Of a stretch of 64,000 nucleotides of DNA, positions 4,293 through 64,000 are shown piece by piece. This DNA comes from a virus. A model generated the notes under the pieces. That model was not told where the DNA came from and searched no databases. It was given only the letters and a program-made list of their open reading frames with translations. How positions within the stretch are numbered: position 1 is the stretch's first letter; every line of letters begins with the position of its first letter. Location of the stretch: positions 460 through 64,459 of the IMG/VR virus record IMGVR_UViG_3300029505_000004, one strand, 5' to 3'. Position numbers and translations under genes: made by a program.

Positions 4293-4508
4293 ATGAAGAA
4301 ATCACAAGATCCGATAGTCCAGCGTAAAGTAGATCTGGAAGAAAACCCTAAAGGAACCATGCTCAAAGTATCTCAGCAAAGAGATCTGGAGGAAAACGGA
4401 AGATATGTTCCAGTTCCGGGAGATAAAAATCACACAATGATTTTCGTCCGTAATGGTGATGATCCAGAAAAGAGAATTGCTGCATATCTGGAAAGAACTA
4501 GATATTAA
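4293..4508 (+). CDS. hypothetical small protein
   Basis: 71-aa ORF that fills the gap in the operon 3 nt after the previous stop. Confidence 0.5.
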   Translation: MKKSQDPIVQRKVDLEENPKGTMLKVSQQRDLEENGRYVPVPGDKNHTMIFVRNGDDPEKRIAAYLERTRY

Positions 4509-4526
4509 TTTTTAAAATAATACATT

Positions 4527-6024: not shown

Positions 6025-6026
6025 TT

Positions 6027-6131
6027 ATGACAGAGCAAGAATTAGACAATATATGCGAACAGACACAATGCGATGGGGATTGCGTTCAATGTCCGATATT
6101 TGCAGAGTATATAAGCGGAAAGGAAGAATGA
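6027..6131 (+). CDS. small Cys-rich protein (34 aa), below the ORF-track cutoff
   Basis: Hand translation: MTEQELDNICEQTQCDGDCVQCPIFAEYISGKEE. AGGAGG at 6014-6019, 7 nt before the ATG. It fills a gap otherwise covered only by implausible overlapping ORFs. Confidence 0.4.
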   Translation: MTEQELDNICEQTQCDGDCVQCPIFAEYISGKEE

Positions 6132-6134
6132 TAT

Positions 6135-6314
6135 ATGAGGAAAGATGAATTGGTAGTATTAAGGTTTCATACAAAAGAAGATTTAGATAAAGCATTGTCA
6201 TTTTTGAGCAATAAGTCAAAACGTGAAATACTACCAAAAACTAATACTGGGTATTATGTGAAAATATCAAAAAGTAGTGCCATAAAGATAGAAAAGGAAT
6301 TGAATAAAAAGTAG
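6135..6314 (+). CDS. small hypothetical protein (59 aa), below the ORF-track cutoff
   Basis: Hand translation: MRKDELVVLRFHTKEDLDKALSFLSNKSKREILPKTNTGYYVKISKSSAIKIEKELNKK. AGGAAG lies 8 nt upstream of the ATG. Confidence 0.4.
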   Translation: MRKDELVVLRFHTKEDLDKALSFLSNKSKREILPKTNTGYYVKISKSSAIKIEKELNKK

Positions 6315-6345
6315 ATGTTATTTTCGTAAAAGTGGAGGAATGATT

Positions 6346-6756
6346 ATGAACAGAGAAATAAAATTCAGAGGAAAATCAGAAGTCACAAATGAGTGGGTTT
6401 ACGGCTCACTTGTAAAGGTTGGGAACGAAAGTCATATAGTCGGATTTGATGAAGTAGACTTAGACGGACATCATCTAAGCTATTGCAGTGATAGACCGAT
6501 ATTCACGAAACAGGGAACAATAGGCCAGTTTACCGGGAAATATGATAAAAACGGAAAAGAAATATACGAAGGAGATATATTAAGACATCTAAATGGAAAT
6601 ACATTTCAAGTTTTATACTCTAATCGCACTACTTCTTTTATTCTTATATCTATTTCTCACAAAGAAGTTGGTTTAGATTTGGGTATTTATGATACTGAAA
6701 ATTGTTTTGAGGTAATTGGTAACATATACGATAATAAAGAACTTTTGGAGGAATAA
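6346..6756 (+). CDS. YopX family protein
   Basis: MNREIKFRGK...EWVYG...GQFTGKYDKNGKEIYEGDIL...EVIGNIYDNKELLE is the classic YopX pattern. Start moved to ATG 6346, which is 7 nt after GGAGG at 6334-6338; the track start 6340 is too close to the RBS. Confidence 0.8.
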   Translation: MNREIKFRGKSEVTNEWVYGSLVKVGNESHIVGFDEVDLDGHHLSYCSDRPIFTKQGTIGQFTGKYDKNGKEIYEGDILRHLNGNTFQVLYSNRTTSFILISISHKEVGLDLGIYDTENCFEVIGNIYDNKELLEE

Positions 6757-6759
6757 ATT

Positions 6760-7278
6760 ATGAAACCAATTCTTGATGCTTGCTGCGGTGGGAAAATGTT
6801 TTATTTTGATAAATCAGACAATAGAGTTTTATTTCAAGATATTCGCAAAGTAAAGACAACTCTTTGTGATGGTAGAATCTTTGAAGTAAATCCTGATGTT
6901 CAATGTGATTTTACTAAAATGCCATACGGAGATGATACTTTTTCTATGGTAGTATTTGATCCACCTCATTTAGTTTACAGCCGGGGGAAAAAGTCTAAAA
7001 TGGTTGACTTGTATGGATGCTTAAGTGACAAAGCAATGCCAACAGGGTATCAACAAATTAAATATGGAGCATTATATTCCGATTGGCGAGATATGCTTTC
7101 AAAAGGTTTTAAAGAGTGCTTTAGGGTATTAAAATCAGGTGGATTTTTGATTTTTAAGTGGAATGATACAGATATAAAGGTTTCTGAGATTTTAAAGTTG
7201 ACACCTGAAAAACCTGTATTTGGTCATATATCAGGGAAACGCTCTAATACTCATTGGATTTGTTTTATGAAAGAATAA
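6760..7278 (+). CDS. putative SAM-dependent (DNA) methyltransferase
   Basis: Motif I-like ILDACCGGKMF and motif IV-like VVFDPPH, then FRVLKSGGFLIFKW. Small phage MTase architecture. GGAGG 8 nt upstream of the ATG. Confidence 0.65.
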   Translation: MKPILDACCGGKMFYFDKSDNRVLFQDIRKVKTTLCDGRIFEVNPDVQCDFTKMPYGDDTFSMVVFDPPHLVYSRGKKSKMVDLYGCLSDKAMPTGYQQIKYGALYSDWRDMLSKGFKECFRVLKSGGFLIFKWNDTDIKVSEILKLTPEKPVFGHISGKRSNTHWICFMKE

Positions 7279-10093: not shown

Positions 10094-12601
10094 ATGGAAA
10101 ATGTAAAGATACAATTTAAAGGAATAACCCGTAACACGGACGATGGAATATGCCCGGACGGGGAATGTATGGAACTGATCAACGCAAAGGTGAACAATTC
10201 CAGTATAGAACCTATTGGAAATCCCATTCAGCTAAAACAGACGGTTCATACATACAAGGAAATATATCACCATGCGAACACTAAGAGATATATCGGGATA
10301 ACCGAGGATGGTCAAATGTACGAAATGCCGGAAGATCTTTCTTCTGAAACAATTATGACGGAAGATGTAAAGGCTAAAAGTATTCAATTCATAGGTAACA
10401 CGGTGTCGGTATTAACTGACACCGGTGTTAAATACCTTCTGTTTAAAAACGATGGATATGCTTATCTGGGTGAACTTCCTGATATGCCCGGCATGACTAT
10501 CAGGAAAAAACTTGCCGTGGTAGATGCGGATATAACAGAAGTATCAGAATTAAGCGACACAGAAGTAAGATATGGCAACTTTGTGAAGGTACTGAATAAT
10601 GCAAACAAAAAAGGATATTATTGCTATGCTGCCGCCTTTTGTGCCGCGTTTCGTCTGTTCGATGGAAGTATTGTAAAGACAACAGAAATTCAAATACCTT
10701 TCCTCGGCTACGATGATATAATGTCATATAATTATAATTCATCTGACAGCGGAAGCGTCAGTGTAGAAATGAAAGGTGGGTTGAGTGATACCCAGTTCAT
10801 TCAGGTAAATACGTCTAATGGTGCCAAAGCTGCATTGTTGTGTTTTAAGCCGGAATTTGTTTTTGACGACTATGATCTGTCGGCATGGGCAGATATCATT
10901 TTGAGCATTGATATTTTCTCTACTGACAGCCTGAGATTTAAAGTCAGTGATCTGTACGACAATATAGAATCCGCTACTACCAGAGCGTCTAATATAAGCC
11001 TGATGTATAATATTGCGGAATTGAAGATCGGAGAAACTACCATTGTACCCGACCTAGATGTATCATCCGACAACATGGCCGTACAGAAAAGCATGGTTGA
11101 CGGATTTGGGTATAATCACAAGGTTAATGCTTCAAAGTCTTATTCGTACAATAACAGGCTTCATCTTTTCGGAATAACAAAGACTTTATTTGAAGGCTAT
11201 AAAATAGTAGCGGGGGCAGAAAATTATACTTTTGATGTATACACCTATATCCACACCTCTAACGGTGATAAAATTGTTCATTCATCACAAAAGGGATCTT
11301 ACATTCCGTCATTCATAATTTATCCTGATAGCCGGGCATACAAAATTGTTGTAAACTGTGCTTCGATCAATAAAGGAAAAACTTTCCTTTTAAACAGCAG
11401 CAATTATTTCAATTTCTCTTATTATTGCAGGTCATTTCAGGACGTATTGATATCAACCAAATACCGGTGCAGGACAAGTTATTTCACCGACACCACTACT
11501 GATTATTTTGTAGATATGCAATACTTGGTACGGCCAACAGATAATATTGATTATTCCAAAGATAATATATTATTGGCTTCCAATGTAAACAATCCGTTCT
11601 ACTTCCCTGCCGATCAGACCTACCAGTTTCAGACACCTATTGTCGGGGTGCAGTCAAATGTGATAGCAATGTCTCAGGGCCAGTTCGGACAGTTCCCTTT
11701 GTATGTGTTTACAAAGGACGGAATATATGCAATGTCTGTCGGATCCGGAACACTGGCCTACTCTACCCAGACACCGGTAACAAGAGACGTATGTAACAAT
11801 CCGGATTCTATATGTGGGCTTGATACAATGGTAGCCTTTTCTACCGAAAGGGGCCTTATGGTAATAGATGGTGCTACTACCCAGCTGATATCGGAAAAGA
11901 TATACGGATTTCTGCCTTCATGTTCCATATCTTCACCGATCATTACCCGTATACTCGCTGTTGCCGGTCTGGATTCATGCCTGTCAAGCGTTGTGTTCCC
12001 GGACTATCTGGAAACGGCAAAAGTGGGATATAACTACGAAACAAAGGAAGTCGTGGTAGCAAACGGGGATTTCCCCTACTCTTATGTATATTCCCTTAAA
12101 ACCGGAGAATGGCATAAGATCTCACAACAGATAGATTCTTTTGTGAATTCCTATCCGTATACCTGGGCAATGATCGGAACGCAAATACTTGATCTGAATA
12201 ACATGCACCGGAGTGTTTCAAAGATAGCCCTTGTTACCAGACCTATTAAGATGGGAACACTTACGCATAAAAGAATACTCCAGACCGCCTTGAGAGGAAT
12301 AGTCAAGAGAAGCCTGTCAGATCTTTACATTAAGGGAGAACCGGTAATGTTCAGAGGTGAAGGAGTAGATATCTTCTCTGATGTCGGAATGTATATTCTG
12401 GCTTCCAATGATGCGGAACATTTTGAACTTGTTGCAAAGAAAGAAAAAATGATTGATATCCGGGATCTTGTCACAAAGATGAACAAGAGCAAACCATACA
12501 AGTATTTTATGATATGCCTTGTCGGTGGTGTACGAACTGACGTTTCAGTGAACTACATTGAAATGATGGTAGACGAAAGCTTTACTAACAGGCTCAGATA
12601 A
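10094..12601 (+). CDS. large hypothetical protein (835 aa), last gene of the + strand block
   Basis: Long uninterrupted ORF ending at a strong bidirectional terminator. No catalytic motif seen. The beta-rich, repeat-like composition suggests a possible virion protein. Confidence 0.7.
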   Translation: MENVKIQFKGITRNTDDGICPDGECMELINAKVNNSSIEPIGNPIQLKQTVHTYKEIYHHANTKRYIGITEDGQMYEMPEDLSSETIMTEDVKAKSIQFIGNTVSVLTDTGVKYLLFKNDGYAYLGELPDMPGMTIRKKLAVVDADITEVSELSDTEVRYGNFVKVLNNANKKGYYCYAAAFCAAFRLFDGSIVKTTEIQIPFLGYDDIMSYNYNSSDSGSVSVEMKGGLSDTQFIQVNTSNGAKAALLCFKPEFVFDDYDLSAWADIILSIDIFSTDSLRFKVSDLYDNIESATTRASNISLMYNIAELKIGETTIVPDLDVSSDNMAVQKSMVDGFGYNHKVNASKSYSYNNRLHLFGITKTLFEGYKIVAGAENYTFDVYTYIHTSNGDKIVHSSQKGSYIPSFIIYPDSRAYKIVVNCASINKGKTFLLNSSNYFNFSYYCRSFQDVLISTKYRCRTSYFTDTTTDYFVDMQYLVRPTDNIDYSKDNILLASNVNNPFYFPADQTYQFQTPIVGVQSNVIAMSQGQFGQFPLYVFTKDGIYAMSVGSGTLAYSTQTPVTRDVCNNPDSICGLDTMVAFSTERGLMVIDGATTQLISEKIYGFLPSCSISSPIITRILAVAGLDSCLSSVVFPDYLETAKVGYNYETKEVVVANGDFPYSYVYSLKTGEWHKISQQIDSFVNSYPYTWAMIGTQILDLNNMHRSVSKIALVTRPIKMGTLTHKRILQTALRGIVKRSLSDLYIKGEPVMFRGEGVDIFSDVGMYILASNDAEHFELVAKKEKMIDIRDLVTKMNKSKPYKYFMICLVGGVRTDVSVNYIEMMVDESFTNRLR

Positions 12602-30677: not shown

Positions 30678-31150
30678 TTGTTCTATTTATTATTTGGCTG
30701 CTTTCTTTTTTCTATCCGATCGAAATGCTGGCCGTTACAAACCACTCTTCTTGGTGGACGCTATTCACATATAATCTGGTACATACTTACTTTCTTCATC
30801 TTGCGGTTAATTGCTTTGTGTTCTGGACTTATTACCGCGTTCTTCATAAATCTGATCTTAAATTTTTGCTTCCGGCCTGTGTTATAATACCGGCCATATC
30901 CGGATATCTATCGGCTAAAGATGTTCCAACTTGCGGATTTTCCGCTGTTATTTCCGTGATAATGGGATATTATCTTTCTGGCATAAACAAGAAGCTTTTT
31001 CTGAAATCCATTTCACTTATTATTTTTTCTTATGTTTTTACCGGCTTGTTTGCGCACGGGGTAAACACACTCATCCATGTGTACAGCTTTTCATCCTCGT
31101 ATCTGGCTAGCCTAGTTTACAGGAGGATATTATGCAGGCGCAGGAAATAA
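30665..31150 (+). CDS. rhomboid-family intramembrane serine protease-like protein
   Basis: WTLFTYNLVHTYFLHLAVN reproduces the GlpG TM2 spacing W-x2-F-T-x4-H-x4-H-x3-N. CGFSAVISVIMGY matches the catalytic GxSG...MGY helix. A later AHGVN supplies the candidate His. Hydrophobic throughout. Confidence 0.8.
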   Translation: MPVIVVLFIIWLLSFFYPIEMLAVTNHSSWWTLFTYNLVHTYFLHLAVNCFVFWTYYRVLHKSDLKFLLPACVIIPAISGYLSAKDVPTCGFSAVISVIMGYYLSGINKKLFLKSISLIIFSYVFTGLFAHGVNTLIHVYSFSSSYLASLVYRRILCRRRK

Positions 31151-33147
31151 TAAAGAAAAACCTTGAAAGGCTCAAAGTAATTGAATCGCCTTACAATCCT
31201 CTTACCGGTGAAGGATCTTTTTCTATTGAGAGAGTAAAGGTAGCATGTGAAGATTTTCCTTTGAAGGGAATGTGGCTTCCGGTGGAATTTGCCAATACCG
31301 GCTTCTGTCAGGTTCTCATGTCTCTTGGAATACGTCTGTACATTGAAAGAATAATGCAGCAGGCGTATACAGAATACATGGCTAATCTTCTGTATGTTGA
31401 ATTTTGTCGGCAGAGATTTCTGTATGATTTTGAATTCTGGGCATACAGTACCGCTCTTATTTCTCCAAAGGGGGGTGGAGAGGATATACACTTCCTTCTT
31501 AACAGGGCACAGAGGACCTATCTTTGTACTCTGGAAAAGCTTAGAAAGAATAATGAACCTATCAACATAATACTTTTGAAAGCCCGGCAATGGGGCGGAT
31601 CTACTCTTACTCAGATATACATGCTTTGGATCCAGATCATTCATAGGAAGAACTGGAACAGTGTTATATGCGGTGATGTAGAATCCCAGTCAAACATTGT
31701 TTCGGGTATGCTTTCCAAAGTAATAGAACATTATCCCACATGGGCTACAAATGGTATTTCTTTGAAAACTACTCCGTTTGAAGGATCATCTAAAACAAGA
31801 CAGATACAGTATTGTCAGTGTCTTTACTCAATCGGATCGGCCCAGAAACCGGATAGCCTTCGTTCTCAAAATATATCTATGGCCCACCTGACAGAGGTGG
31901 GTTTGTGGAAGGAAACGAAAGGTAAAAAGCCTGAAGATCTTGTACAGTCTATTTTTGGATCAATCAATGACGGCCCTTACACAGTCAAGGTTCTTGAATC
32001 TACCGCCAAAGGTGTAGGAAACTATTTTCACAGAACATGGCTGAAAGCTGTAAAGGGAGAAAACGACTTTACACCCGTATTTATCCCGTGGTTCCTGATT
32101 GATATGTACTCTACTTACATAGGATATCAGAACTATCTGGATTTCATAGAATCAATGGATGAATACGAACACTACCTTTTTGAGTTGGGTGCTACTCTTG
32201 AAGCTATTGCCTGGTATCGGAAAAAGAAAAAAGGAATGGTTGAGGAATGGCGTATGTGTTCTGAATATCCTTCTGATCCGAAAGAAGCATTTCAGTCAAC
32301 CGGCCGCCCGTTCTTCCCCAGACAATATGTTGAACAGTGTCGTAAATCCTGTATGGATCCGGCTTTCTATGGAGAATTTGTCGGTGACGCAACTAAAGGA
32401 GAAAAAGCATTTGAAAATATACGGTTTGTTGAAGTCGAAAAACCGAAACAGAGAGAAAATGCGCTGCATGTATGGATGCTTCCAGACAAATCAAAAGGGC
32501 TTTACAGATACAGATATATTGTTTCTGTTGATATTGGTGGTACTGGAGATCAGGCAGACTACTCTTCGATTAAAGTATTTGACCGGCTTCCCATGATTGA
32601 AGGCGGTATTCCGGAAGTAGTTGCCGAATGGCATGGTCATATCGAACACGACCTTTTGATATGGAAAGCTGCCCAGATAGCTAAAGCTTATGACACGGCT
32701 TTACTTGTCATTGAATCCAATACATTAGAGACAGAAGGAACAGAAGGAGACAATTTTGAATATGTGCTTGATGAAATTGTTGATTTCTATCCCGACCTGT
32801 ATAGCCGCACAAGTCCGGAACAGATCAAACAGGGAGCACCGGTTAAATATGGTTTCCACACCAACCCTTCAACCAAGCCAATGGTTACCGGGTTCCTGAA
32901 GGCTGCCATGCGTGATTGCCTGTACATAGAACGAAGCTTAGAAACAACGTTTGAATACGACCAGTTTGAAATCAAAGAGGATGGCAAAAAGACTGGTGCT
33001 GTTGAGGGTTGCCATGACGACCGTGTAATGTCTACCGCAATAGGCGTATATGTTTGCTATAAGACAGAGAAACCATACAGGATTGCACAAAAAAATACGG
33101 GCCTTCAAAAGAGAAAAACCCGTATTGTTTCCGAAGCTTCCGTTTAA
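31132..33147 (+). CDS. terL: terminase large subunit
   Basis: ATPase motif LLKARQWGGSTL. Nuclease-domain motifs SVDIGGTGDQADYSSIKVFD and GCHDDRVMSTAIG. 671 aa. Confidence 0.8.
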   Translation: MQAQEIIKKNLERLKVIESPYNPLTGEGSFSIERVKVACEDFPLKGMWLPVEFANTGFCQVLMSLGIRLYIERIMQQAYTEYMANLLYVEFCRQRFLYDFEFWAYSTALISPKGGGEDIHFLLNRAQRTYLCTLEKLRKNNEPINIILLKARQWGGSTLTQIYMLWIQIIHRKNWNSVICGDVESQSNIVSGMLSKVIEHYPTWATNGISLKTTPFEGSSKTRQIQYCQCLYSIGSAQKPDSLRSQNISMAHLTEVGLWKETKGKKPEDLVQSIFGSINDGPYTVKVLESTAKGVGNYFHRTWLKAVKGENDFTPVFIPWFLIDMYSTYIGYQNYLDFIESMDEYEHYLFELGATLEAIAWYRKKKKGMVEEWRMCSEYPSDPKEAFQSTGRPFFPRQYVEQCRKSCMDPAFYGEFVGDATKGEKAFENIRFVEVEKPKQRENALHVWMLPDKSKGLYRYRYIVSVDIGGTGDQADYSSIKVFDRLPMIEGGIPEVVAEWHGHIEHDLLIWKAAQIAKAYDTALLVIESNTLETEGTEGDNFEYVLDEIVDFYPDLYSRTSPEQIKQGAPVKYGFHTNPSTKPMVTGFLKAAMRDCLYIERSLETTFEYDQFEIKEDGKKTGAVEGCHDDRVMSTAIGVYVCYKTEKPYRIAQKNTGLQKRKTRIVSEASV

Positions 33148-47500: not shown

Positions 47501-49933
47501 CGACATGTAGTATATGGTCTTATCAGATTGATTTTCATCAACTTTACCTTCGTTATCAAACACAAGGTTTCCGCGAAGAACATTAACAGGATTTTTGGTT
47601 AGCTTGTTATTTACCCGCATGATCGTGCCGGTGGTTGCATTGGTAAGGCTTTCGACTTGTGCTTCCGCTTGTCTCCTTGCATTATCAGCCTGATCTTGCA
47701 CCCAATAATTATAATTAACAAAATCATCATAGGCTTGTTTGTATTTCATTATGTTGTTGGCCGTTTCCGGATCAAATTGAGATATGATAGCCTGATATCC
47801 TTCTTCTGAATTGATGATAGAGTTGAGTTCTTCATCGTTCAAGCTGATCTTAGAACGCGTCTCATTCAGATTGTTGATAATGTTCCTTTTTTCAACAGCA
47901 ATTTCTTCCGGCATCATCTGTTTGTCTGCTTCCTGTAAGGTTTGTTCCTGAAGGACTGAAGATATATACTTGATAGCATTCTTCTTCATATCCGGAGACA
48001 TAGGGCTGGACAGAACATCTTTGACCATGTTGCGGGCCGTTTCAATATCAGCGTCCTGAAGGGCTTCTCTTACACCGGACCAATCTTCGCCCATTGCATC
48101 CTGCATCTGGGTTTCAAAATTACGCATGTTGCGGTAGTTCTTGTATTTATCACGAAGATATCCACCTGTTCCGGCTGCACCAAACAATGCAGACATGGGA
48201 GCAACACCGAGGAACGTATCAATATTCTGATCAAGATCGACAAGCTGTTCAGGTGTCATATCTCCTATTGCGGTAGATACAAGGTTATTGGCAACTTCTT
48301 CGGCATATTCTCCCAATGGATCAGATATCTTGGCACGTCTGGCAATCTCCTGCATTTCCCGGAAGCCTTGACTATTGACAACGTCCTTGAACGCCTTACC
48401 TACTGATGCAGGTATGATCTTTCCAACTTTGTTCGCACCAGTAACACGACCGATATATCCCAACATAGGCGCAAAGTATTCGCCCAGAAGTTCGCTTCCG
48501 GTTTCTGCGGCTGTTGATATTATGGACTTACCGAGTGCTTCCGCTCCAGTCTGTACATTCTCCCGACCATCATAAGATACCGTTCCGTCTGCGTTAGGCT
48601 TAACCTGCACGTCTCCCAGACCTCTACGCTGATAATCTGCGGCCACTCTTGCACTTCCGAATGTGGCGGTGTGCGCTGCAACGTCTCCCAGACCGGCAAC
48701 AGTTCTGGCGGCACCTTTAGCCAGCCCAGTTGTAGCCCGGCCAAGGCCCATTTGTGCAGCCTTATCAGCCGCATACTTAACAATGGCTTTAGACGCTGGT
48801 TTGGTCAAAGCCTGAACTGCACCCATACCGGCAATCATGTCAAGCATGAACGGAAGTGATTCTGCTGTTACACCGCCAGCCTTATAACCTCTTCCAAGAT
48901 CACCGGAATAATACATCTGTGTTGCAGCATTGGTGACAAGAGCCTGCATAAGTGCATCTTCCGAAGGAGTAAGTTCTTCCCCCTTGTCTACTTTGTCCAT
49001 GACTTTCTTTGCGGCAGAATAATTCTTGAGATCCTGCAATCCCATTGCCCATCCGTCCAGTGGTGCGTCCTTGAAACCACGCGCAAACCCGGCAAAGAAG
49101 TTGGTGTTTCCTTTCTTCTTCGCTTCATTGGTAATATTCTGAGCCTGTTCTATTAGGGTAGACGCATATTCCAACTGTTTGTCGGTATCATTCTGCTCCC
49201 CGGCAAGATACGCCTGTGACATGGTTGAGAATATACCGCCATCACCAACAGATCTCACGCGCTGTTGTCTTTCCTTAGCACGTTCCTGCCTTGCCGCATT
49301 GATCAGTTCATTAACGCTGTTGATCTGCTCCTGATTCTGCCTTTTGAACAGTTCAAGATTCTGTTCCTTCATATAGGGATCATTGGCAGACTTCTGTGCC
49401 TGTTCAACTCTCTGCTGTTGGTCAATACCGATTTTACGGACTAGATCCGAAGGATTGTTTTCAAACAGATCTTGCTGGGGCAAAGGCCTTGTGGCAAGAT
49501 TATTCCCCTTGCTCCTGAACATATCAGGAACATTGTCAAGAATGTACCCTTGTGTCTTGGGATCATAAGAAGGCATATCTTGAACTGGCTGTACTTGCGG
49601 CTGTTCCGGCTGAACATTCTGGGTTCTCACATTGGTTGCCGGTTCTTCCTGTGATCTGGCTACCAGTTTGCTCGAAAACGAATCGAAGTCGCCAACATCA
49701 TATCCATCATTTGTAATTGTCTCATACAACGATTTCCGTTTAGTTTCGTCCTGTACATTCTTGCTGAACGAATCGAAGTCGCCAACATCATATCCATCAT
49801 TTGTAATTGTCTCATACAACGATTTCCGTTTAGTTTCGTCCTGTACATTCTTGCTGAACGAATCGAAGTCGCCAATATCATAACCATCTTGGGTTAGTCT
49901 ATCATACAATACTCTTGTCTTATTATCTTCCAT
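38552..49933 (-). CDS. giant polyvalent protein, N-terminal 3793-aa fragment (DarB-like)
   Basis: Carries an N6-adenine MTase, a strawberry-notch/SNF2-like helicase, an HEXXH motif and a pyrophosphatase-like motif. Motifs seen: LEPSAGNG (about 44465-44487) and TNPPFG (about 44299-44316); GDMTGVGKGRQGA (about 43225-43262), ILDESHTAGG (about 42760-42790), STGISLHA and QMRGRIDRTGQ (about 41600-41633); HEGVAH (39644-39661); ENPKGSVRSG...GVDGDHIDVF (about 45645-45800). The last 3 codons and the stop are read from IS sequence. Confidence 0.9.
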   Translation of the reverse strand: MEDNKTRVLYDRLTQDGYDIGDFDSFSKNVQDETKRKSLYETITNDGYDVGDFDSFSKNVQDETKRKSLYETITNDGYDVGDFDSFSSKLVARSQEEPATNVRTQNVQPEQPQVQPVQDMPSYDPKTQGYILDNVPDMFRSKGNNLATRPLPQQDLFENNPSDLVRKIGIDQQQRVEQAQKSANDPYMKEQNLELFKRQNQEQINSVNELINAARQERAKERQQRVRSVGDGGIFSTMSQAYLAGEQNDTDKQLEYASTLIEQAQNITNEAKKKGNTNFFAGFARGFKDAPLDGWAMGLQDLKNYSAAKKVMDKVDKGEELTPSEDALMQALVTNAATQMYYSGDLGRGYKAGGVTAESLPFMLDMIAGMGAVQALTKPASKAIVKYAADKAAQMGLGRATTGLAKGAARTVAGLGDVAAHTATFGSARVAADYQRRGLGDVQVKPNADGTVSYDGRENVQTGAEALGKSIISTAAETGSELLGEYFAPMLGYIGRVTGANKVGKIIPASVGKAFKDVVNSQGFREMQEIARRAKISDPLGEYAEEVANNLVSTAIGDMTPEQLVDLDQNIDTFLGVAPMSALFGAAGTGGYLRDKYKNYRNMRNFETQMQDAMGEDWSGVREALQDADIETARNMVKDVLSSPMSPDMKKNAIKYISSVLQEQTLQEADKQMMPEEIAVEKRNIINNLNETRSKISLNDEELNSIINSEEGYQAIISQFDPETANNIMKYKQAYDDFVNYNYWVQDQADNARRQAEAQVESLTNATTGTIMRVNNKLTKNPVNVLRGNLVFDNEGKVDENQSDKTIYYMSEDGRVKMAPVSMFSSLVDNTPAEEMIQRAGNDAQEEVLQAEEAQINSIPAQEQQPIGPETRFTMGGNNYEVNRVTPDGYEVYLLDENGTPAQSQLMSEEEIRNAINGQQPANGEETQPSVAEQPVQEETSEQPVQENQTAMSRIPLNERGEQDFEAAPIADTSAALLEISDNVDDAKDTVTQMIEYYNNELKKVEKKKSSGNTIQGIIETKKAKKAINDKISYWNQVAADLEAKRPTGLIAQAEEKAKENQQRLASMTAEEQQAAQQEVQKKIDAGAFERKEPRKKVRYVKEDADLGPSITPQEHVLREIATGRVSFSLSDTEGAQGLSSHLGYSNSPEERKKLVWALSSDGLTPEAAAEQIHADMPENLQGMVTDQDVFNMIINAFQEYGSPSKMWDAAKNMHGTDIEENIPGYEEDQERQLIEWEASENRMSVPEWIAYSDYIEEELNNLYSSVTDEELNTIFEQIINDYERRAETESAGSTEGQTDSEQGNTVQPERESDNEGRTGEVEEQPEPAIKTDGKSGSVVPEPEGTVKTDIEAARAEVDQNPTEAQKEAGNYKKGHVKIDGYDVTIENPKGSVRSGKDADGNEWSVTMNNDYGYIHGTEGVDGDHIDVFLSDNPETGDVFVIDQVNPDGTFDEHKVMYGFKSALAAKRAYMANYSKDWTGLGNITRVSKEEFKKWVNSSHRKTKPFAEYKSVVPVSEKETTTNAEDTPAKSNNIVSDERYQELKNRLKQKLGQLNAGIDPEIIAIGAEMAVYHIERGAVKFADYCKAMVDDLGDVIRPYLKSFYSSARYMPQSIENGLSERMSPDSEVSQFDVTNFDKSVPDVMQQIENVAKEKEIEKATSSNDVKKSPSDLFGNSEEYQKKAEQEKEAVSIIGVKIAEKAIAKRNDEQVDPLTMKEVKDILKGYDMLSDMSATDMQELVELAMTNETRLIAESYINGDATKQKQGYDTIVDMYNMQPLLNARDSTRFERQQYSTPTPFGYVMGKFVKDGKTVESVLEPSAGNGALTIAFPANTVHVNDIDERRLENLRTLGYAQVTNQDALIPFEGSVDAVLTNPPFGSTTAKEFDDGQIKISSLEGLMAINALESMKDNGRAAIVIGGNTSYRDNGAMQSKDMKLFAYLYSHYNVVDVINLNGDMYKRNGTKYDVRIILINGRKTGPFKLIAPPVKSKARAEQINSFEELYNRVQDDIRSLQQMGDLFNGTEGETRTTDTEGSGANNNVSNRPKSGERGKSVRPDKKVGSDNDMGSTGNTTASGPEQAERSTAEENAGKLDNADRSNAGSVEPVQEQRGSDNGGSTGGSRNGGSVRSDSGDNTGRSRLSVNLSDEKVPYPNRSQSGTLMSVVPANQAQVLADSLANIGDVDQFLVDQLGYSSKDELFSYLAAEQIDSVSLAINQMNKGNGFIIGDMTGVGKGRQGAALIRYAVRKGYNPIYFTQKPALFSDNYRDLADIGSGDLRPFIIASDPKNAAITDASGNVVHKLPTDKEKKRVFDYIMKNGKLPEEYDYVITTYSQINNGTKEYEPKEDGIAEKDKSYKKKSPSAADKSGQERRDVIQALSKDNIMILDESHTAGGSGGGSMYMQYIMPKVKGVTFLSATFAKRADNMPIYAMKTDLSKSGISPQDMIEAISQGGVTLQEIMSKQLVQSGQMIRRERSFQGVTIDWMPVSEEEDAVQRKQFDEVSSIFSDIRAFQKDYITPIVEGISEELSEQGGYSDLQQGTAELGVTNTPFASKMYNLVNQLLFSLKADAVANRVIENLKNGFKPVISFTNTMEGFLDEAPKDTPMDKVPNFSATLMRALDGVMRYTETNLKGEKENKFFTVNDLPEAGQNKYYEIREKIENLSADLPISPMDAIKMKIQKAGYKVGEITGRTLEMVQDENGKYVIQNRKDRDKKSAARDFNNGQLDVLMVNKSGSTGISLHASPKFEDQRQRVMVFAQFQSDINDEVQMRGRIDRTGQKFRGKYEYIMSSIPAEQRLQMMFKAKLKSLDANTTSSQKSKFNEMEVVDYLNKYGDDVTWQYMLEHPELSEKLGDPLKILTSEGEESQSGDTNTAGKEGCAAKIARYLPFLPVKEQEEVFKDITDAYNVKIQLLNDAGENDLEITTMPLKAKTISKKIWKPGTDPNSGNAFADNTYLEEVEVDVLKKPMKAEEIKSTVSRMTSGEPFNEWLDNRVKEINSLYDGKIATLKERLDQSALERSEKAKKNYIEKSKEARKNGKNEFTDEEIEKMSEVVVEDIMKKSKESFIKQKNVIEARRENIRKQINSFTPMKPLVIPFNLDETLVTIMPSRGMFLGYKFSKDYSPSSSTAIFATLDGRRKVEIPLNQEKAFNSIRMNTMMQPTYLKDLNVDTWDSYVPTQTRKKAYIVTGNLLQALVDTKKSENVKGYLVSYSTIEGDTKQGILMSDSFKPENLTTSAPISSRLIQIQQGETVISEDKRVIVEKNTGWRSGYALKVPKSKKQGGEFFEDNKLRSLADNKEFTTRGNYMVADISSDNLSKVLDRLSKMGVTVSKKAKLENSEDVRFRVSEENQDLNNIKSEDVEETSKKLNVPVEVITSVDQIKDNSVRSAIEKGRKVKGWYSLSDNKVYVYLPNATSMEDVNQTILHEGVAHYGLRQLVGEDRMDDFLDDVFANVTDEVRKKIIDTLPRYGYNSRIATEEYMARMAENGVDVSVWQRIKQAFNSLMRRMGINIKISDNELQYILWRSRQNLDKNKPLDLAKDVAMQYQMGVGNYFREDTDGSIGMYEQSLKGWKYKAQEAYQDSMLALKNLQEVIAKVSGKPIKSFENAYMAENQLSSKNTSEAEVYYKKHYQPMLQEAGKMMKKYGLTQKGIERYMMLAHGIERNVELTFRERLDEVIKNKKGNADQLIQDFKDEKERLRKLYSGYEYLKELSDYIGGVNDYSATQAILNSMDGEEHDNFQEDALNYVKDFEQTYDVKELWNKINDATKTTLRKAYDSGMMGKEQYSNVNNLNQ
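38565..38571. repeat. target-site duplication, right copy (TTATTTA)
   Basis: See the left copy at 37476-37482. Confidence 0.8.
49681..49860. repeat. two identical 90-bp tandem repeats (plus diverged flanking copies) in the 5' end of the polyvalent gene
   Basis: 49681-49770 equals 49771-49860 base for base. A diverged copy starts at 49861. They encode the 30-aa unit DGYD.GDFDSFSKNVQDETKRKSLYETITN. Confidence 0.9.
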
Positions 49934-52360: not shown

Positions 52361-53596
52361 TTATATCCGCATCATTAAAGCTTCATTCCTCAACTCCAGA
52401 TAAGGCTTGTACTTGTCCGGATCATTGACATAATCACACACTCTTGCAACACATATACTGGCTTGCTGGCTCCTGATTTTGGTATAATATCTTATAATGC
52501 CTTTGGCCCGATCGCTATGTCCCAGACAATAATTGATAACTCCGTCCGGCATACCCAGGTCACATGCGAATTGAGCAAAACATTTCCGCGCTGAATAGAA
52601 TATTACTTTCTCTTCTATTCCCAGTTCTTCCGCAAGAAGCGACAAACAATAAGATACATACTGGGAAAAGTTATGATAGGTGTAATTATACCCGAAATCA
52701 AGCTTTCCATCACTCTTGATCCATTCCTGATAATACTTCTTGATATTCTCCGGCATGGTAAAAGATATCCGGTTCTCCTGCTGTGTCCTTCCTGCTGACT
52801 TGGTTCTTACATAGCTGACATCTTCCTTCCGGAAGTCTACGTTCATAAGGTCTATCAGATTCATGCCGCCCAGAGAGAAGGAAAGCATAAACAGATCTCT
52901 TGCCATTCTTAACCTCTTTCTTTCCGGATTGCTGTACATGATCTTACGGAAAGATTCAATACTTAACGATACATCGCGGACCGGTGCCGGTGATATCTTG
53001 GTTGTCGCGAACGGATGAATAGAATAAGTTACCATCTGATCCGATACGGCTTTGTTCACAATGACCTTAATGTGGCTTAGTATAGTATTGATATACGTTT
53101 GGGTTTTCCCGGCCTTCTTTAGTTTATCAGCAAAAGATTTAATCAGGACCGGTGTTATATCCTGCATATCTATATCTCCATTGCAATACTCACAAAAGTA
53201 ACGGGATGATCTCTCCATCAGTTTTGCATACGATGATCTGTTGTTGTCCAGAAGATAACTCACATACTCGTTAGATATTCCGCGAAATGTGACTTCCGTG
53301 TCAGAAGGCCCGGCCTTGATGATGTCTCTCAATTGCTCGCAGGTGTAGATGCCGGTGTTGCGAATGTTATCCAGCCGTTCTTCGTACAGATCCATCATTG
53401 CACGCAACTTTTTATTGAGTGCTGATGCATCCGGGTGCTTGACGATCTTCCCATTTTTAAGCTGGCTTGGATCTGCCAGAATGATTGATGTTACGATGTA
53501 ACTTGTACGCGACTTGTGACGGACCGCAATTCTCAATTTATGCGTTCCATTGATAAGTTGTCTTTCGGGGATAATTACAGGATTGATTGTTGCCAT
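52361..53596 (-). CDS. int: tyrosine-type site-specific integrase
   Basis: 411 aa. Bacteroidota phage-integrase layout, with candidate catalytic-region motifs ARDLFMLSF, SARKCFAQF and LGHSDRAKGIIRYY. Adjacent to a tRNA-derived att core. Confidence 0.9.
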   Translation of the reverse strand: MATINPVIIPERQLINGTHKLRIAVRHKSRTSYIVTSIILADPSQLKNGKIVKHPDASALNKKLRAMMDLYEERLDNIRNTGIYTCEQLRDIIKAGPSDTEVTFRGISNEYVSYLLDNNRSSYAKLMERSSRYFCEYCNGDIDMQDITPVLIKSFADKLKKAGKTQTYINTILSHIKVIVNKAVSDQMVTYSIHPFATTKISPAPVRDVSLSIESFRKIMYSNPERKRLRMARDLFMLSFSLGGMNLIDLMNVDFRKEDVSYVRTKSAGRTQQENRISFTMPENIKKYYQEWIKSDGKLDFGYNYTYHNFSQYVSYCLSLLAEELGIEEKVIFYSARKCFAQFACDLGMPDGVINYCLGHSDRAKGIIRYYTKIRSQQASICVARVCDYVNDPDKYKPYLELRNEALMMRI

Positions 53597-54624: not shown

Positions 54625-55245
54625 TTATAATCTTATACTTCCAACAACTAAATTATACGATCTTATATCCTCTTTGGGTATCGAGAAGTCTGGAAACTCC
54701 GGATTGAAGGACTTGCACACAATATAATCTCCATTATCATATATCCTTTTAATGACAACGCCTTGAGTTGTATCTAATACATGTACTCTTCCCCATTGAA
54801 GAAACCTCTTTTCGTTTACCCGCAAACACGCCACTTCATCACCGGCAAAATATTCCGGCTCCATACTCCGGCCGACTATTCTGATAGTAAAATCATATCT
54901 GGGGAAAACTCCTATTATAGGAACCTGTTCGCATTGATACTCCGCCACACCCTCTACTGTTTCGGTGAGTGTGCCTGCTGCCGCATCATAGGGTATTCTG
55001 GGGCGAGTATTATTCTTATCGAAGAACTGTTCTTTAGAGATAACCATATCACCTACTCCATTTAAAAGCCAGTCTGAATTCAAATCAGGATAAACACAGA
55101 GTATTCTCTGTAATTTATCCGCTCCTATGCCTTTAGAAATGTTGTTTACAAATCCATTGCTCAAGCCAACGGACTTTTCAAAACGACTTTGGCTAAGCCC
55201 TTTGTGCTTTATAAAAGCAACAAGTCTATCTTTTACGGTAAGCAT
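54625..55245 (-). CDS. CI/LexA-like repressor (XRE HTH plus S24 peptidase)
   Basis: N-terminal HTH LSQSRFEKSVGLSNGFVNNISKG. C-terminal S24 motifs VGRSMEP (Ser) and VVIKRI (Lys). Confidence 0.85.
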   Translation of the reverse strand: MLTVKDRLVAFIKHKGLSQSRFEKSVGLSNGFVNNISKGIGADKLQRILCVYPDLNSDWLLNGVGDMVISKEQFFDKNNTRPRIPYDAAAGTLTETVEGVAEYQCEQVPIIGVFPRYDFTIRIVGRSMEPEYFAGDEVACLRVNEKRFLQWGRVHVLDTTQGVVIKRIYDNGDYIVCKSFNPEFPDFSIPKEDIRSYNLVVGSIRL

Positions 55246-55266: not shown

Positions 55267-55317
55267 TTACAGAAATTTCTCTATGTTTTTATACTCGCTT
55301 TACAGAGATTTCTCTAT
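55267..55317. promoter_or_regulatory. paired operator candidates in the repressor/early divergent region
   Basis: TTACAGAAATTTCTCTAT (55267-55284) and TTACAGAGATTTCTCTAT (55300-55317), 17/18 identical, starts 33 bp apart. Core AGAAATTTCT is palindromic. Confidence 0.55.
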
Positions 55318-55322
55318 CTTTG
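55315..55322 (+). promoter_or_regulatory. candidate Bacteroidota-type -7 box (TATCTTTG) for rightward early transcription
   Basis: Matches TAnnTTTG and overlaps the second operator copy. Confidence 0.35.
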
Positions 55323-56622: not shown

Positions 56623-56669
56623 CGCTTGTAGAAAAGCAATTCTATTTTCTTAATCTTAACCACTGGACA

Positions 56670-56734
56670 GGGGCTGTAGATCAATGTAGATCATCACTTC
56701 GGTGAAGATGCGGATTCGTAACCCGCCAGCTCCA
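56670..56734 (+). ncRNA. tRNA-like element lacking an anticodon loop
   Basis: Acceptor GGGGCTG/CAGCTCC (7 bp, one G-U). D-stem GATC/GATC. T-arm GCGG(A)-TTCGTAA-(C)CCGC. The anticodon arm is replaced by TCAC-TTCG-GTGA (4-bp stem, UUCG tetraloop). Total 65 nt. Confidence 0.45.
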
Positions 56735-56788
56735 CAATACTTGTAACTAACAGCAAAGGTGGTGTGAATGCGCCAGGGCTTGTGATCA

Positions 56789-56821
56789 AGGAATGCGTTG
56801 GGAATGCGTTGGGAATGCGTG
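56789..56821. repeat. 3 x 11-bp tandem repeat
   Basis: AGGAATGCGTT GGGAATGCGTT GGGAATGCGTG. Confidence 0.85.
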
Positions 56822-56903
56822 TCTGGTGATATGGGGCCTAGTATGTCAGGCGGCGGCGGTGATGAACCGTGGGCACCGTGGAAAAGCGTGATAGATAAAC
56901 AGA

Positions 56904-56938
56904 GCAAGACGTCCCGCAAGACGTCCCGCAAGATGTCC
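56904..56938. repeat. 3 x 12-bp tandem repeat
   Basis: GCAAGACGTCCC GCAAGACGTCCC GCAAGATGTCC. Confidence 0.85.
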
Positions 56939-57080
56939 TTGAGAGACCAAGTACGCGAGCCAGTAAGCATCATTAATGGGAAGAGTTGCCGGTTAAATTC
57001 AATAGCGTATCTCTTTTTTTTTTAAAAAAAGTCGTCCGCTAAATGGGAAAGCTACACCCTATTCCTAAAAAAACCTGGCA

Positions 57081-57134
57081 TTTGCTAGCAATTGCTAGCA
57101 TTTGGTAGCATTTGCTAGGTTTGCTAGCAATTGC
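57081..57134. repeat. iteron array A: five and a half copies of a 10-bp unit wTTGCTAGCA
   Basis: TTTGCTAGCA ATTGCTAGCA TTTGGTAGCA TTTGCTAGG TTTGCTAGCA ATTGC. Helical (9-10 bp) phasing. Palindromic core TGCTAGCA. Confidence 0.85.
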
Positions 57135-57263
57135 TTTCACTCGCCAAAAAAATACGCTAAATTCTTCTATTTTTGGAAGAATAAATCAATTTTCGATGAA
57201 ATATTTTTACATGGTTAATTAGTTGTATTTCAGCGAGTAAAGTATCATCAAAGAGGTTGAAGT

Positions 57264-57298
57264 CTAGCAAATGCTAGCAAATGCTAGCAAATGCTACA
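57264..57298. repeat. iteron array B: three to four copies of the same unit in inverted orientation
   Basis: TCTAGCAAA TGCTAGCAAA TGCTAGCAAA TGCTAC. TGCTAGCAAA is the reverse complement of TTTGCTAGCA. Confidence 0.85.
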
Positions 57299-57370
57299 TG
57301 ATATATGATATATATAATAAGATAATATATATTATTAACCCCTTTATATTTCCCCTTAGAACTTTCAGCT

Positions 57371-57400
57371 TGTCCGGTCATATCCGGACAGGCTTTTTTT
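57371..57400 (+). terminator. rho-independent terminator-like hairpin
   Basis: TGTCCGG-TCATAT-CCGGACA followed by GGCTTTTTTT. Confidence 0.55.
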
Positions 57401-60372: not shown

Positions 60373-60803
60373 AGATATTGTGTGTTGTTACTGAAAATGG
60401 TCTAGCCCCAAAGTATGACAGTGACCGGGAAGAGTTTTCCCGGCTTAAAAGAAACACTGATGTTTTGGTAGAGGTGGGGCAAAAGAGAAATTATGAGTTT
60501 CACAAAAAATTCTTTGCCCTTCTTAAGTTGACATACGATAACTTCCCGGAATGGATGGAAGATAATCTGAATGTACATTCTGTTGAGGATCTCAGGACGC
60601 GTCTTAAGATTGATCTGGGCCTGTACGAAGTTTCGCATTACGGGAACCAGTCTGTAATTATACCGAAATCTATTGCATTTGACAAGATGGATGAAACTGA
60701 ATTTGAAAAGTTCTACAAAATGTCAGTAAATCACATTTTGAAAAACTATCTCAAAGGAGTAACTAACGAGCAAATTGAGGAAGAAATATGGAAGTTCCTA
60801 TAA
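60369..60803 (+). CDS. hypothetical protein
   Basis: 144-aa ORF, coupled on both sides. Confidence 0.6.
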   Translation: MKILCVVTENGLAPKYDSDREEFSRLKRNTDVLVEVGQKRNYEFHKKFFALLKLTYDNFPEWMEDNLNVHSVEDLRTRLKIDLGLYEVSHYGNQSVIIPKSIAFDKMDETEFEKFYKMSVNHILKNYLKGVTNEQIEEEIWKFL

Positions 60804-62221
60804 AACTTAATATTACCCCCTATGATTATCAAAAGGAAGGAATTGAAAAAGGGCTGGAGTGGAAAAGGCTTTTTTTAGGCGATGAACCGGGCCTGGGGAA
60901 GACATGCCAGTCTATCGGTATTGTTAATACCGCAAAGGCATACCCTGCTCTGGTTATCTGTCCATCTTCCCTTAAGATAAACTGGAAAAGAGAATTTGAG
61001 AAATTCGCCGGGGCCGAAGCTATTGTTCTTAACGACAATATAAAAGCTACATGGGGGTACATGCTGCAAATGCACAACATGGACGTTTGCATCTGCAATT
61101 ACGAAAGCCTTCGAAAGTATTTTGTTTGGGAGTATAAAAAAGGCTACCGTCTGAAGGATATAGTATTCAGCCCATTTATCAGCCTGTTCAAGTCTGTAAT
61201 TATCGACGAAAGCCACCGCTGCAAAGATCCGGGAGCGCAACAGTCTAAGTTTGTAGCCGGTCTTGCTGCCGGGAAAGAATATGTTATGCTGCTAACCGGT
61301 ACACCGGTAGTAAACCGGCCAAGAGATCTGATAGCCCAGCTTGCTATTATAGACCGCTTAAAAGAGTTTGGAGGAACAAGCTATTTCACGGCCCGGTATG
61401 GGGATGGCGAAAATCTGACAGAATTGTCAGAAAAGCTATACGAAACATGTCTTGTCCGAAGGGAAAAGAAAGATGTTCTTACCCAGCTTCCGGATAAAAC
61501 AAGAATGGATATCTATATCGACATAGAGAAGGAAGCACCACAAGAGTATTATGAAGCTTACAAGATGGCGGAAGAAAACCTGAAGGAGTATCTATTAACA
61601 TACAAGTCATGTACTGAATGGCAAGCGCGGGCAAAGATGCGTAACAAAGCCCTAGTTCAGTTCATGGAGTTAAGATCTCTTGTTGGAATATGCAAGGTCA
61701 AACCTGTGATAGATTTTATCAAAGATTTTGTTGCAACAGGGAAAAAGATCGTTGTTTTCTGTTCATCTCATTCGATTGTTGATTCCATAAAAAAGGCTTT
61801 TCCTAAAGCGGTAATGGTTACCGGCCGCGAAAACTATGTACAGAAGCAAGCAGCGGTAGATGTGTTTCAAAACCGACCGGAAATCCAAGTGATTATCTGT
61901 TCTATAAAGGCTGCCGGTGTTGGAATTACCCTGACAGCTTCTTCTACTGTTTTGTTCATCGAACAGCCGTGGACCTATGCTGATCTTGTTCAATGCGAGG
62001 ACCGTTGCCATCGTATAGGGCAGAAGGATAACGTAACCGTATACAATGCTCTGGGAAATAACAGCATTGATCACAGGATATACAATCTAATACAAAACAA
62101 GAGAAGCATATCCAATCAGATAATGGCTTCTTCTGATGACATACCAAAGGATGAATGTTATTTTGACGAACTTGTAAATCTCGTATTGAATGACACAAAA
62201 AAGCAAAATAGCAATACTTGA
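60788..62221 (+). CDS. SNF2-family helicase
   Basis: Motif I GDEPGLGKTCQS. Motif II IIDESHRCK. C-terminal motifs AAGVGITLTAS and QCEDRCHRIGQ. Confidence 0.9.
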   Translation: MEVPIKLNITPYDYQKEGIEKGLEWKRLFLGDEPGLGKTCQSIGIVNTAKAYPALVICPSSLKINWKREFEKFAGAEAIVLNDNIKATWGYMLQMHNMDVCICNYESLRKYFVWEYKKGYRLKDIVFSPFISLFKSVIIDESHRCKDPGAQQSKFVAGLAAGKEYVMLLTGTPVVNRPRDLIAQLAIIDRLKEFGGTSYFTARYGDGENLTELSEKLYETCLVRREKKDVLTQLPDKTRMDIYIDIEKEAPQEYYEAYKMAEENLKEYLLTYKSCTEWQARAKMRNKALVQFMELRSLVGICKVKPVIDFIKDFVATGKKIVVFCSSHSIVDSIKKAFPKAVMVTGRENYVQKQAAVDVFQNRPEIQVIICSIKAAGVGITLTASSTVLFIEQPWTYADLVQCEDRCHRIGQKDNVTVYNALGNNSIDHRIYNLIQNKRSISNQIMASSDDIPKDECYFDELVNLVLNDTKKQNSNT

Positions 62222-63203: not shown

Positions 63204-64000
63204 AAAATTACACACCTGAAAAAATTACAAGCCTTAAAGAGAATGAAATTTTTGTTTTTGGATCGAATCTCAATGGAAATCATGCTGGCGGTGCTGCCTG
63301 TTTAGCGGTAGAAAAATTTGGCGCGCAAATGGGAAATCCTGAAGGAATACAAGGCCAGTCTTATGCTATTCCTACATTGGATAAAAATATGGATCGTATT
63401 AATCTTACTGACTTGGAACAGTCAATATGCAGATTTTACCAATATGCCGAGGAAAACCCAGGGAAGGTATTCTACATGACAAAAATAGGTTGCGGCATTG
63501 CCGGATATGAATTGTCAGATATTGCCACAGTGGTTAATTGCCGTAATATTCCGGATAATGTAATTATACCAGAAGAATTTACACATATTCCGGGGTATAA
63601 GGGATTTGATGAAAATATGCAGTGCCGTGGATTTCAGTATCAAGAAGGTAATACATACCATGAATATGGTAATATAGAAGCGTGTCAGAGTGGATTTCAT
63701 TTTTGCAAATATCCTCTTGATATTTTTAGTTACTATCCTCCTGCTAAGAACAGATTTTGCAAAGTAGAAGGATTTGGGAAAGTATCTAATGACACAGGTG
63801 ATACGAAGGTGGCTGTTTCCGACTTAAAAGTAAAGGCAGAAATTGGTATATCAGGCCTTGTAAAGGCCGCTATTGAGTACACAAGAAAGAGGTGTACGAA
63901 TAAATGTAATGCAAAAGAAGGAGAACCAGCGACCGCCGGATCTTATGGTGCAGCGACCGCCGGAGATAATGGTGCAGCGACCGCCGGAGATAATGGTGCA
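63200..64000 (+). CDS. partial CDS (runs off the window): conserved phage FGSN..G.H.GGAA / SYAIPT domain, a Cys-rich GFHFC domain and ATAG repeats
   Basis: Not in the ORF track because it has no stop. Hand translation is open from ATG 63200 to 64000. Motifs: FVFGSNLNGNHAGGAA, GQSYAIPT, CQSGFHFCKYPLDIFSYY, then GAATAGDNGAATAGDNGA encoded by 24-bp DNA repeats. Confidence 0.6.
   Translation, partial: MKNYTPEKITSLKENEIFVFGSNLNGNHAGGAACLAVEKFGAQMGNPEGIQGQSYAIPTLDKNMDRINLTDLEQSICRFYQYAEENPGKVFYMTKIGCGIAGYELSDIATVVNCRNIPDNVIIPEEFTHIPGYKGFDENMQCRGFQYQEGNTYHEYGNIEACQSGFHFCKYPLDIFSYYPPAKNRFCKVEGFGKVSNDTGDTKVAVSDLKVKAEIGISGLVKAAIEYTRKRCTNKCNAKEGEPATAGSYGAATAGDNGAATAGDNGA

Follow-up and report, generated by a model that had tools for sequence, protein, structure and literature searches.

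In phage lambda, the replication origin lies within the gene for the O protein: iterons and, after them, an AT-rich region occupy the sequence coding for the linker that joins the origin-binding N-terminal domain to the loader-recruiting C-terminal domain. The lambda iterons are palindromes of ~18-19 bp that lie roughly two helical turns apart. The iterons of theta plasmids (RK2 oriV, P1 oriR, pPS10) are 17-22 bp long and are bound by winged-helix Rep proteins. In phage SPP1, the gp38 protein (G38P) binds direct repeats that adjoin an AT-rich unwinding element, once within gene 38 (oriL) and once at an intergenic site (oriR), and the initiator gene is followed by genes for a helicase loader and a helicase (PMC6316719). 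By analogy, SPP1 oriL/oriR is the closest known system to the locus described here and provides a precedent for a single initiator with both an in-gene and an intergenic origin.

The window analysed in this study, a stretch of 64,000 nucleotides, comes from a temperate Bacteroides-type phage. It contains two inverted arrays of 10-bp repeats that, judged from comparative sequence analysis, are probably part of the vegetative (theta-type) replication origin of this phage. The arrays are most likely bound by the phage's own DUF6291 protein, a predicted initiator encoded ~8 kb away. No description of a replication origin with iterons in temperate Bacteroides phages was found in the literature searched.

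Like SPP1, the DUF6291 family appears to have in-gene and intergenic origins, composed of repeats and an AT-rich element, and a loader gene downstream of the initiator gene. Unlike SPP1, the window lineage has the intergenic copy only, its 10-bp iterons are arranged in two inverted arrays, and searches by sequence and by fold related DUF6291 to no solved structure, such that a link to gp38 is not demonstrated. The likeness to lambda lies in the predicted initiator, which is modelled as two domains joined by a disordered linker, and in the arrays within DUF6291 genes of other phages, which occupy the same position as the iterons in O. However, the units in the window are 10 bp, contiguous and directional, the putative origin is located outside the gene, and the candidate initiator belongs to Pfam DUF6291/DUF7833 rather than Phage_rep_O. 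With theta plasmids the locus shares repeated (putative) initiator sites beside a repeated AT-rich unwinding element, and an iteron copy number that varies among close relatives. No DnaA box was seen at the locus on inspection by eye.

Genomic context of the repeat locus

The window encodes an integrase (52361-53596) and an S24 CI-like repressor (54625-55245), the latter facing a set of small rightward genes. A protein identical to the candidate initiator was found encoded on a 1.2-Mb contig, indicating that an integrated form of the phage exists. The repeat locus is located downstream of tRNA-Arg, tRNA-Met and a tRNA-like element, within ~800 bp of non-coding DNA. Directly downstream of it is the early operon, encoding RecT, a PDDEXK-like DUF3799 protein (weak Pfam match), a DUF1367 protein and an SNF2 protein; this agrees with the sequence-only reading, an earlier annotation of the window, which had placed the locus between the tRNA genes and the RecT/SNF2 operon. 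That annotation had also proposed GC skew as a check. A turn was observed near 55-56 kb, but it coincides with a switch in gene strand.

No DNA match to the locus was found among GenBank phages using either megablast or blastn, and a RecT scan of GTDB genomes yielded no match. Three matches to the boxed pattern in GTDB genomes (Elusimicrobiota, Salimicrobium) were in unrelated taxa and were taken as chance.

The surrounding region contains additional repeats and unusual elements. Two copies of ACAGA(A/G)ATTTCTCTAT are present in the interval that separates the CI-like repressor gene from the divergently oriented first rightward gene (55270-55318); these are probably immunity operators and unrelated to the TAGCAA unit of the arrays. 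The tRNA-like element (56670-56734, plus strand) scored 42.7 bits with the Rfam tRNA model and was not called by ARAGORN. Its anticodon arm has a short UUCG-type loop instead of the 7-nt anticodon loop, and the tRNA-like sequence found there in relatives is longer and differs from it. In the near-identical prophage L282, the SNF2 gene (4582-7083) encodes 833 aa compared with 477 aa in the window (60788-62221), and a LAGLIDADG domain separates the SNF2 and Helicase_C domains; this segment is probably an intein or a homing-endonuclease insertion. Two further tandem repeats were detected, one at the start of the gene for a 3793-aa DarB-like protein (49677-49888; 90 bp, 2.4 copies, 98% matches) and one that runs off the end of the window (63927-64000; 24 bp, 3.1 copies).

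Two inverted iteron arrays and an adjoining AT-rich tract

Array A (57078-57135, minus strand) is composed of approximately six 10-bp iterons (Tandem Repeats Finder: period 10, 5.9 copies, 81% matches, one 9-bp unit). The array had previously been delimited to 57081-57134 with 5.5 copies; its presence was confirmed, with the limits and copy number adjusted as given here. Most units read TAGCAA on the minus strand (TTGCTA on the plus strand), while one or two units at the left edge are oppositely oriented. Array B (57264-57296, plus strand) is composed of 3.3 perfect copies of CTAGCAAATG aimed at the AT tract (Tandem Repeats Finder: period 10, 100% matches), in line with the three to four inverted copies noted earlier at 57264-57298. 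An inverted-repeat search paired the two arrays as 33-nt arms, 94% complementary and 145 nt apart. The 8-bp core of the repeat is a palindrome and the directional part, TAGCAA(A/T), is the one conserved in relatives, indicating that arrays A and B are truly inverted.

The iterons are clustered at the locus far above chance. TGCTAGCA occurs seven times within the 64 kb compared with 0.98 expected, a number reached in none of 100 shuffles, and five of the seven copies are at the locus. TAGCAA/TTGCTA occurs 44 times in the window, with nine copies at the locus and a peak of six per 120 bp compared with 0.08 expected.

The arrays are separated by an AT-rich spacer (57136-57263) of 128 bp and 28% GC, which falls within the least stable 5% of 128-bp windows. 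The earlier annotation had described this ~130-bp spacer as AT-rich, which was borne out, and as prone to unwinding, a role that more probably belongs to the tract following array B. This putative DNA unwinding element (57297-57338, plus strand) is composed of GATATAT/GATAAT repeats. Between 57298 and 57337 it forms the least stable 40-mer of the 64 kb (-34.8 kcal/mol compared with a mean of -51.9, sd 3.8; ~4.5 sd), such that an easily melted AT-rich element directly adjoins the iterons, at a position homologous to that of the (GATAGT)n repeats found within other DUF6291 genes. The same 40 nucleotides are 11.6% GC; the tract had been called AT-only, but it contains a few G.

Further elements lie on either side. 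Upstream, a conserved AATAGCG - T10A7 - CGTCCGCTAAATGGG element (57001-57047, plus strand) is situated at a fixed distance from array A and is possibly an auxiliary site. Downstream, the AT tract is followed by an invariant C-rich box, CCCCTTTATATTTCCCCTTAGAAnTTTC (57339-57366, plus strand), which is complementary to the left box CGCTAAATGGG, and then by a terminator-like hairpin (57367-57394, plus strand) with seven T, the element extending to 57401, immediately ahead of the early operon's first gene. A terminator hairpin after the AT tract had also been recognised in the earlier annotation. The array region is flanked by two invariant, mutually complementary boxes at 57037-57047 (CGCTAAATGGG) and 57339-57348 (CCCCTTTATA). 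RNAalifold paired these boxes with each other, and being invariant, they carry no covariation signal. The left box is preceded by a conserved AATAGCG...CGCTA inverted repeat around the T10A7 run (57001-57047).

The locus is conserved in four diverged lineages

Pattern and protein scans of IMG/VR identified four diverged lineages bearing the arrays: the window group, L005/L128, the L023 group and L053/L028. A scan of viral contigs with the 15-mer CCTTTATATTTCCCC returned mostly chance matches, which were filtered using a second motif. The lineages share 59-67% identity across the region, and all four keep the same order of elements: CGCTAAATGGG box, array A, AT spacer, array B, GATA-repeat tract, C-box and terminator. 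A search of related phages for the array had been proposed earlier, and the architecture was thus found to be kept. In all lineages the units of array A are located at fixed offsets of 44/54/64/73/83 from the CGCTAAATGGG box, and the tract after array B is made up of GATAGT/GATAAT/GATATA repeats, reading GATAGTGATAGTGATATATAAT in relatives. Changes within the terminator stem are compensated. The spacer varies in length from 90 to 135 bp and its sequence is not kept. Helical phase between arrays A and B is likewise not conserved across relatives, suggesting that a rigid structure joining them is unlikely.

Within one lineage, L023 and L176/L177/L180 differ by exactly one 10-bp unit in array B, and in the L023 lineage array A is more degenerate than array B. 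A protein-coding reading of the DNA upstream of the arrays (56650-57030) was rejected; open frames are present there, and the frame is not kept between lineages.

Bacteroides phage BKO1-TP3 has the same gene order, with a RecT 43% identical to that of the window. Arrays were absent from the parts of this genome examined, and tblastn found no DUF6291 match. The absence of arrays from syntenic relatives had been put forward as evidence against an origin; in BKO1-TP3 a match to the initiator is missing as well, and all four array-bearing lineages carry both.

Distant DUF6291 genes contain colinear repeats

Distant DUF6291 genes, here meaning those outside the window's own group, were identified in Vibrio, Pseudoalteromonas, Shewanella, Aeromonas, Riemerella, Cellulophaga, Flavobacterium and Olleya phages, and a profile-guided scan gave 80 more viral DUF6291 loci. 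Within IMG/VR contigs, at least 522 stretches encode a DUF6291 relative. Several of the distant genes are annotated 'replication protein', and those inspected are followed by genes for a DnaB-like helicase, a putative replication protein P, a COG1484-based 'DNA replication protein' or a primase/helicase.

At least three GATAGT-type hexamers were present just past the N-domain in 63 of the 64 distinct distant genes, and exact 5-mers recurring at 9-11 bp were present in 49 of the 64. The in-gene order is constant, with repeats of 10-bp period leading into (GATAGT)n hexamers after the part coding for the N-domain. AGCAA was found in all three codon phases (36/34/23) and its commonest spacing by far was 10 bp, indicating that these repeats are selected as DNA and not as peptide. 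On this comparative evidence the in-gene repeats are putative origins of the lambda-O/SPP1-oriL style, lying inside the initiator gene. Within the window's group (12 distinct genes), neither runs of GATAGT-type hexamers nor iterons at 9-11 bp were found inside the gene.

The iterons of DUF6291 genes fall into several classes: TAGCAA, AACCCA, TACCA, TCGCA, ATAAC and ATACGA. Genes of the TAGCAA class (Vibrio phage D478, L021, L216-L219, L221-L223, L226, L227, L233, L240, L247, L253 and L270) carry the exact array B unit CTAGCAAATG running into GATAGT, a typical in-gene sequence being ...GTAGCAAATGCTAGCAAAAGC...CTAGCAGATAGTGATAGT. When aligned, the in-gene arrays of this class are colinear with array B and the AT tract of the four intergenic loci, with TAGCAA..GCTA.CAA invariant and GATA nearly invariant. 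The replication-origin interpretation in the sequence-only reading is therefore strengthened by the same 10-bp unit and GATAGT orientation inside homologous DUF6291 genes, and by a predicted initiator located beside a helicase loader. By the same alignment, array B together with the adjoining AT tract is the conserved core of the putative origin. Since the window lineage has no in-gene repeats and has arrays 7-9 kb upstream, its origin would be a displaced, intergenic one.

The strict pattern TGCTAGCANNTGCTAGCA was rejected as a marker for DUF6291 genes, with such a gene found within 2 kb at only one of 56 viral loci (L021). This palindromic sequence is not the real unit; the directional TAGCAA is, and it was the search from the protein side that succeeded. 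A separate set of repeats was observed in L046, an unrelated high-GC viral contig, where more than 12 GCTAGCA repeats (4750-5060) are found inside a gene for a 371-aa protein (4223-5338, minus strand) with a repetitive ASNxLA linker; possibly this is another origin-in-gene system with a similar core.

A candidate initiator and its link to the iterons

The earlier annotation had named no cognate initiator. A candidate can now be proposed, the product of gene 1221-1874 (plus strand), which is composed of a DUF6291 N-domain (aa 5-92), a disordered linker (aa 86-107) and a DUF7833 C-domain. Immediately downstream is a gene for a DnaC-like helicase loader (1792-2529, plus strand; the L282 equivalent was called at 10698-11309), such that a predicted initiator and a helicase-loading partner are encoded in the same genome. 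We infer the initiator role of the DUF6291 protein from gene context in other phages. An AlphaFold model (pLDDT 67, modest) predicted two helical domains separated by the disordered linker at aa 86-107, and this linker region corresponds to the part that appears to encode the origin in other DUF6291 phages.

Pfam returned only DUF6291 and DUF7833 for this protein and no Phage_rep_O, the best hit in a PDB profile search was an unrelated protein (E-value 0.019), and Foldseek using the moderate-quality model gave no match below E=1. Homology to lambda O/Phage_rep_O, DnaD or G38P was thus found neither by sequence nor by fold, and no mention of DUF6291 was found in the literature searched. An origin inside gene 1221-1874, in the manner of lambda O, had been raised as an objection to an origin at the arrays. 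Lambda-style iterons were absent from this gene, indicating that such an arrangement does not apply here. Isolated iteron-like pieces, GAGCAAATGCC and ATAGCAAAGGCAAG, occur in its linker-coding part (1445-1500) without forming an array, and might be remnants of an origin that lay within the gene in an ancestor.

Tabulating DUF6291 genes revealed that the amino acid motif before a conserved GG partitions with iteron class. Approximately 15 genes of the TAGCAA class have xR[AKSR]x[ASL]G (e.g. RRAEAG, KRALAG, KRSELG), approximately 22 of the AACCCA class have xNxxNG (e.g. RNKNNG), and other classes have other motifs; the partition is clade-structured, and these ~37 cases are not independent. The window protein and those of all array-bearing relatives have KRA(N/S/D)AGRKGG (KRANAGRKGG in the 1221-1874 product), which places the window group in the TAGCAA class. 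In the window relatives the densest TAGCAA cluster precedes the initiator gene by 7.2-9.4 kb, and at other TAGCAA-class loci it is found +166 to +280 nt inside the gene. The initiator is carried by four of four array-bearing lineages, and BKO1-TP3 shows neither a match to the initiator nor, in the parts examined, the arrays. Taken together, the shared unit, the motif partition and the co-occurrence constitute in silico evidence for a specific initiator-iteron link, and the relation between the motif before GG and iteron type suggests a simple recognition code.

A conserved region with a predicted structure upstream of the arrays

A conserved non-coding stretch of ~250 nt (56757-56995, plus strand) is found upstream of the arrays. 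RNAalifold applied to the four lineages folded it into a long irregular hairpin in which 92.6% of cells were paired and 30 of 65 pairs were compensatory, compared with 34-42% paired and 2-7 compensatory pairs in slid controls. The pairing is between 11-nt repeats (56790-56820, GGAATGCGTTG x2.8) and 12-nt repeats (56904-56938, GCAAGACGTCCC x2.9), and in the L053 lineage both repeat families have changed together (GGTGAATGAGTG / GTCACGCAATAT). No other copies of either repeat were found in the window. The many G-U pairs point to a plus-strand RNA. Rfam gave no match to the hairpin, and single-sequence folding of the region gave z = -0.2, such that the support for this structure comes from covariation only.

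By itself, the origin model does not account for what array A, the spacer, the pair of invariant boxes and the terminator do. In a further reading, which we consider unlikely, the whole ~650-nt non-coding block (56750-57400) would be one transcription-coupled origin module. An early plus-strand transcript, whose 5' domain would be conserved and structured with the 11-nt repeats paired to the 12-nt repeats, would continue across both arrays and the unwinding element as far as the conserved terminator. Acting alongside the DUF6291 initiator, it would be an activator or a primer (R-loop, ColE1 RNA II-like), and its 5' domain would be closed by the two invariant, mutually complementary boxes, CGCTAAATGGG and CCCCTTTATA. 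If true, this would be a hybrid RNA-plus-iteron origin, a type not described for tailed phages.

Alternative functions of the arrays

The locus lies in the path of early rightward transcription, and across lineages the conserved terminator is only 20-28 nt before the first early gene, leaving no room for a separate promoter. Such a position would also suit an operator or roadblock for a transcription regulator, possibly the DUF6291 protein itself, that controls read-through into the RecT...SNF2 operon and not replication. It is improbable that this is what the arrays are for. When relatives were compared, no Bacteroides-type -33/-7 promoter (TTTG / TAnnTTTG) proved to be conserved in position, either within the spacer or next to the arrays, and a sigma-70 promoter scan of the region gave chance level only. 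Moreover, the CI/Cro operator repeats (ACAGARATTTCTCTAT, 55270-55318) differ from the TAGCAA arrays, and in most DUF6291 phages these repeats are found in coding sequence, next to AT-rich hexamers and ahead of helicase genes, an arrangement that fits an origin and not an operator. The iterons of iteron plasmids commonly double as autoregulatory operators; because initiator-bound iterons are often operators as well, a regulatory role may coexist with that of an origin.

Arrays A and B could also pair with one another in the plus-strand transcript (or be extruded as a cruciform), forming a long hairpin that acts as an RNA element such as a processing site, an sRNA precursor or an attenuator. In the window the arms are long (33 nt) and 94% complementary, a terminator follows, and the strong RNA-type covariation in the adjoining upstream 250 nt suggests that the region is probably transcribed. 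However, an alignment of six sequences gave a covariation term of +1.64 for the A:B hairpin, only three of 48 pairs were compensatory and variable positions broke pairs, whereas for this set of genomes the neighbouring upstream region yielded 30 compensatory pairs out of 65. Furthermore, the degenerate units in array A of the L023 and L053 lineages have no matching changes in array B, and the in-gene homologues have iterons in one orientation only, which precludes a hairpin there; an RNA role for the paired arrays is accordingly very unlikely. Two repeat clusters around a core are also seen at other kinds of site. Plasmid R1 parC has two blocks of ~10-11 bp repeats around a central region, P1 pac has clusters of hexamers to either side of where cleavage takes place, and the locus resembles these sites in overall shape. 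A centromere-like parS site had been listed as an alternative in the earlier annotation, and found no support here; a partition site of the parC/parS type, or a terminase pac site, is extremely unlikely. No ParA/ParB/ParM/ParR-type genes were detected among the early, immunity and selected structural ORFs scanned, and the phage itself encodes an integrase and a CI-like repressor and is present in integrated form within a 1.2-Mb contig. The gene for the large subunit of terminase (31132-33147) is 26 kb from the locus and not adjacent to it. Unlike R1 parC/ParR, the window shares its repeat unit with predicted replication-initiator genes, and neither partition nor packaging explains why the array B unit is found inside them.

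A model for initiation and its implications

For a replication origin at this locus, the observations comprise the anatomy of the arrays, their conservation, their colinearity with in-gene repeats, motif/iteron covariation and co-occurrence with the initiator; from these we infer binding, unwinding, loader recruitment and a role for array A. The N-terminal DUF6291 domain of the 1221-1874 protein would bind the 10-bp TAGCAA iterons, lying on one face of the helix. An oligomeric initiator complex formed on array B would then destabilise the adjoining GATATAT/GATAAT tract (57298-57337), and the C-terminal DUF7833 domain would recruit the DnaC-like loader, encoded by the adjacent gene, along with the host helicase. 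Additional initiator sites would be provided by array A, which is inverted and ~130 bp upstream and may cooperate with array B by looping of the flexible AT-rich spacer. In most DUF6291 phages the origin would be located in the linker-coding part of the initiator gene, and in the window lineage it would be located in the non-coding region before the early operon.

The locus provides a concrete candidate origin for a group of temperate Bacteroides-type phages. The construction of replicating vectors or reporter phages for gut Bacteroidales would benefit from a defined origin and initiator, and the position of the origin would help to read replication activity from metagenomic coverage. A phage origin of the iteron-plus-DUE kind is known; what appears to be new, on the basis of these sequence comparisons, is the assignment of an origin-binding initiator function to the widespread Pfam family DUF6291, whose putative origin is intergenic in one lineage and located within the initiator gene in others.
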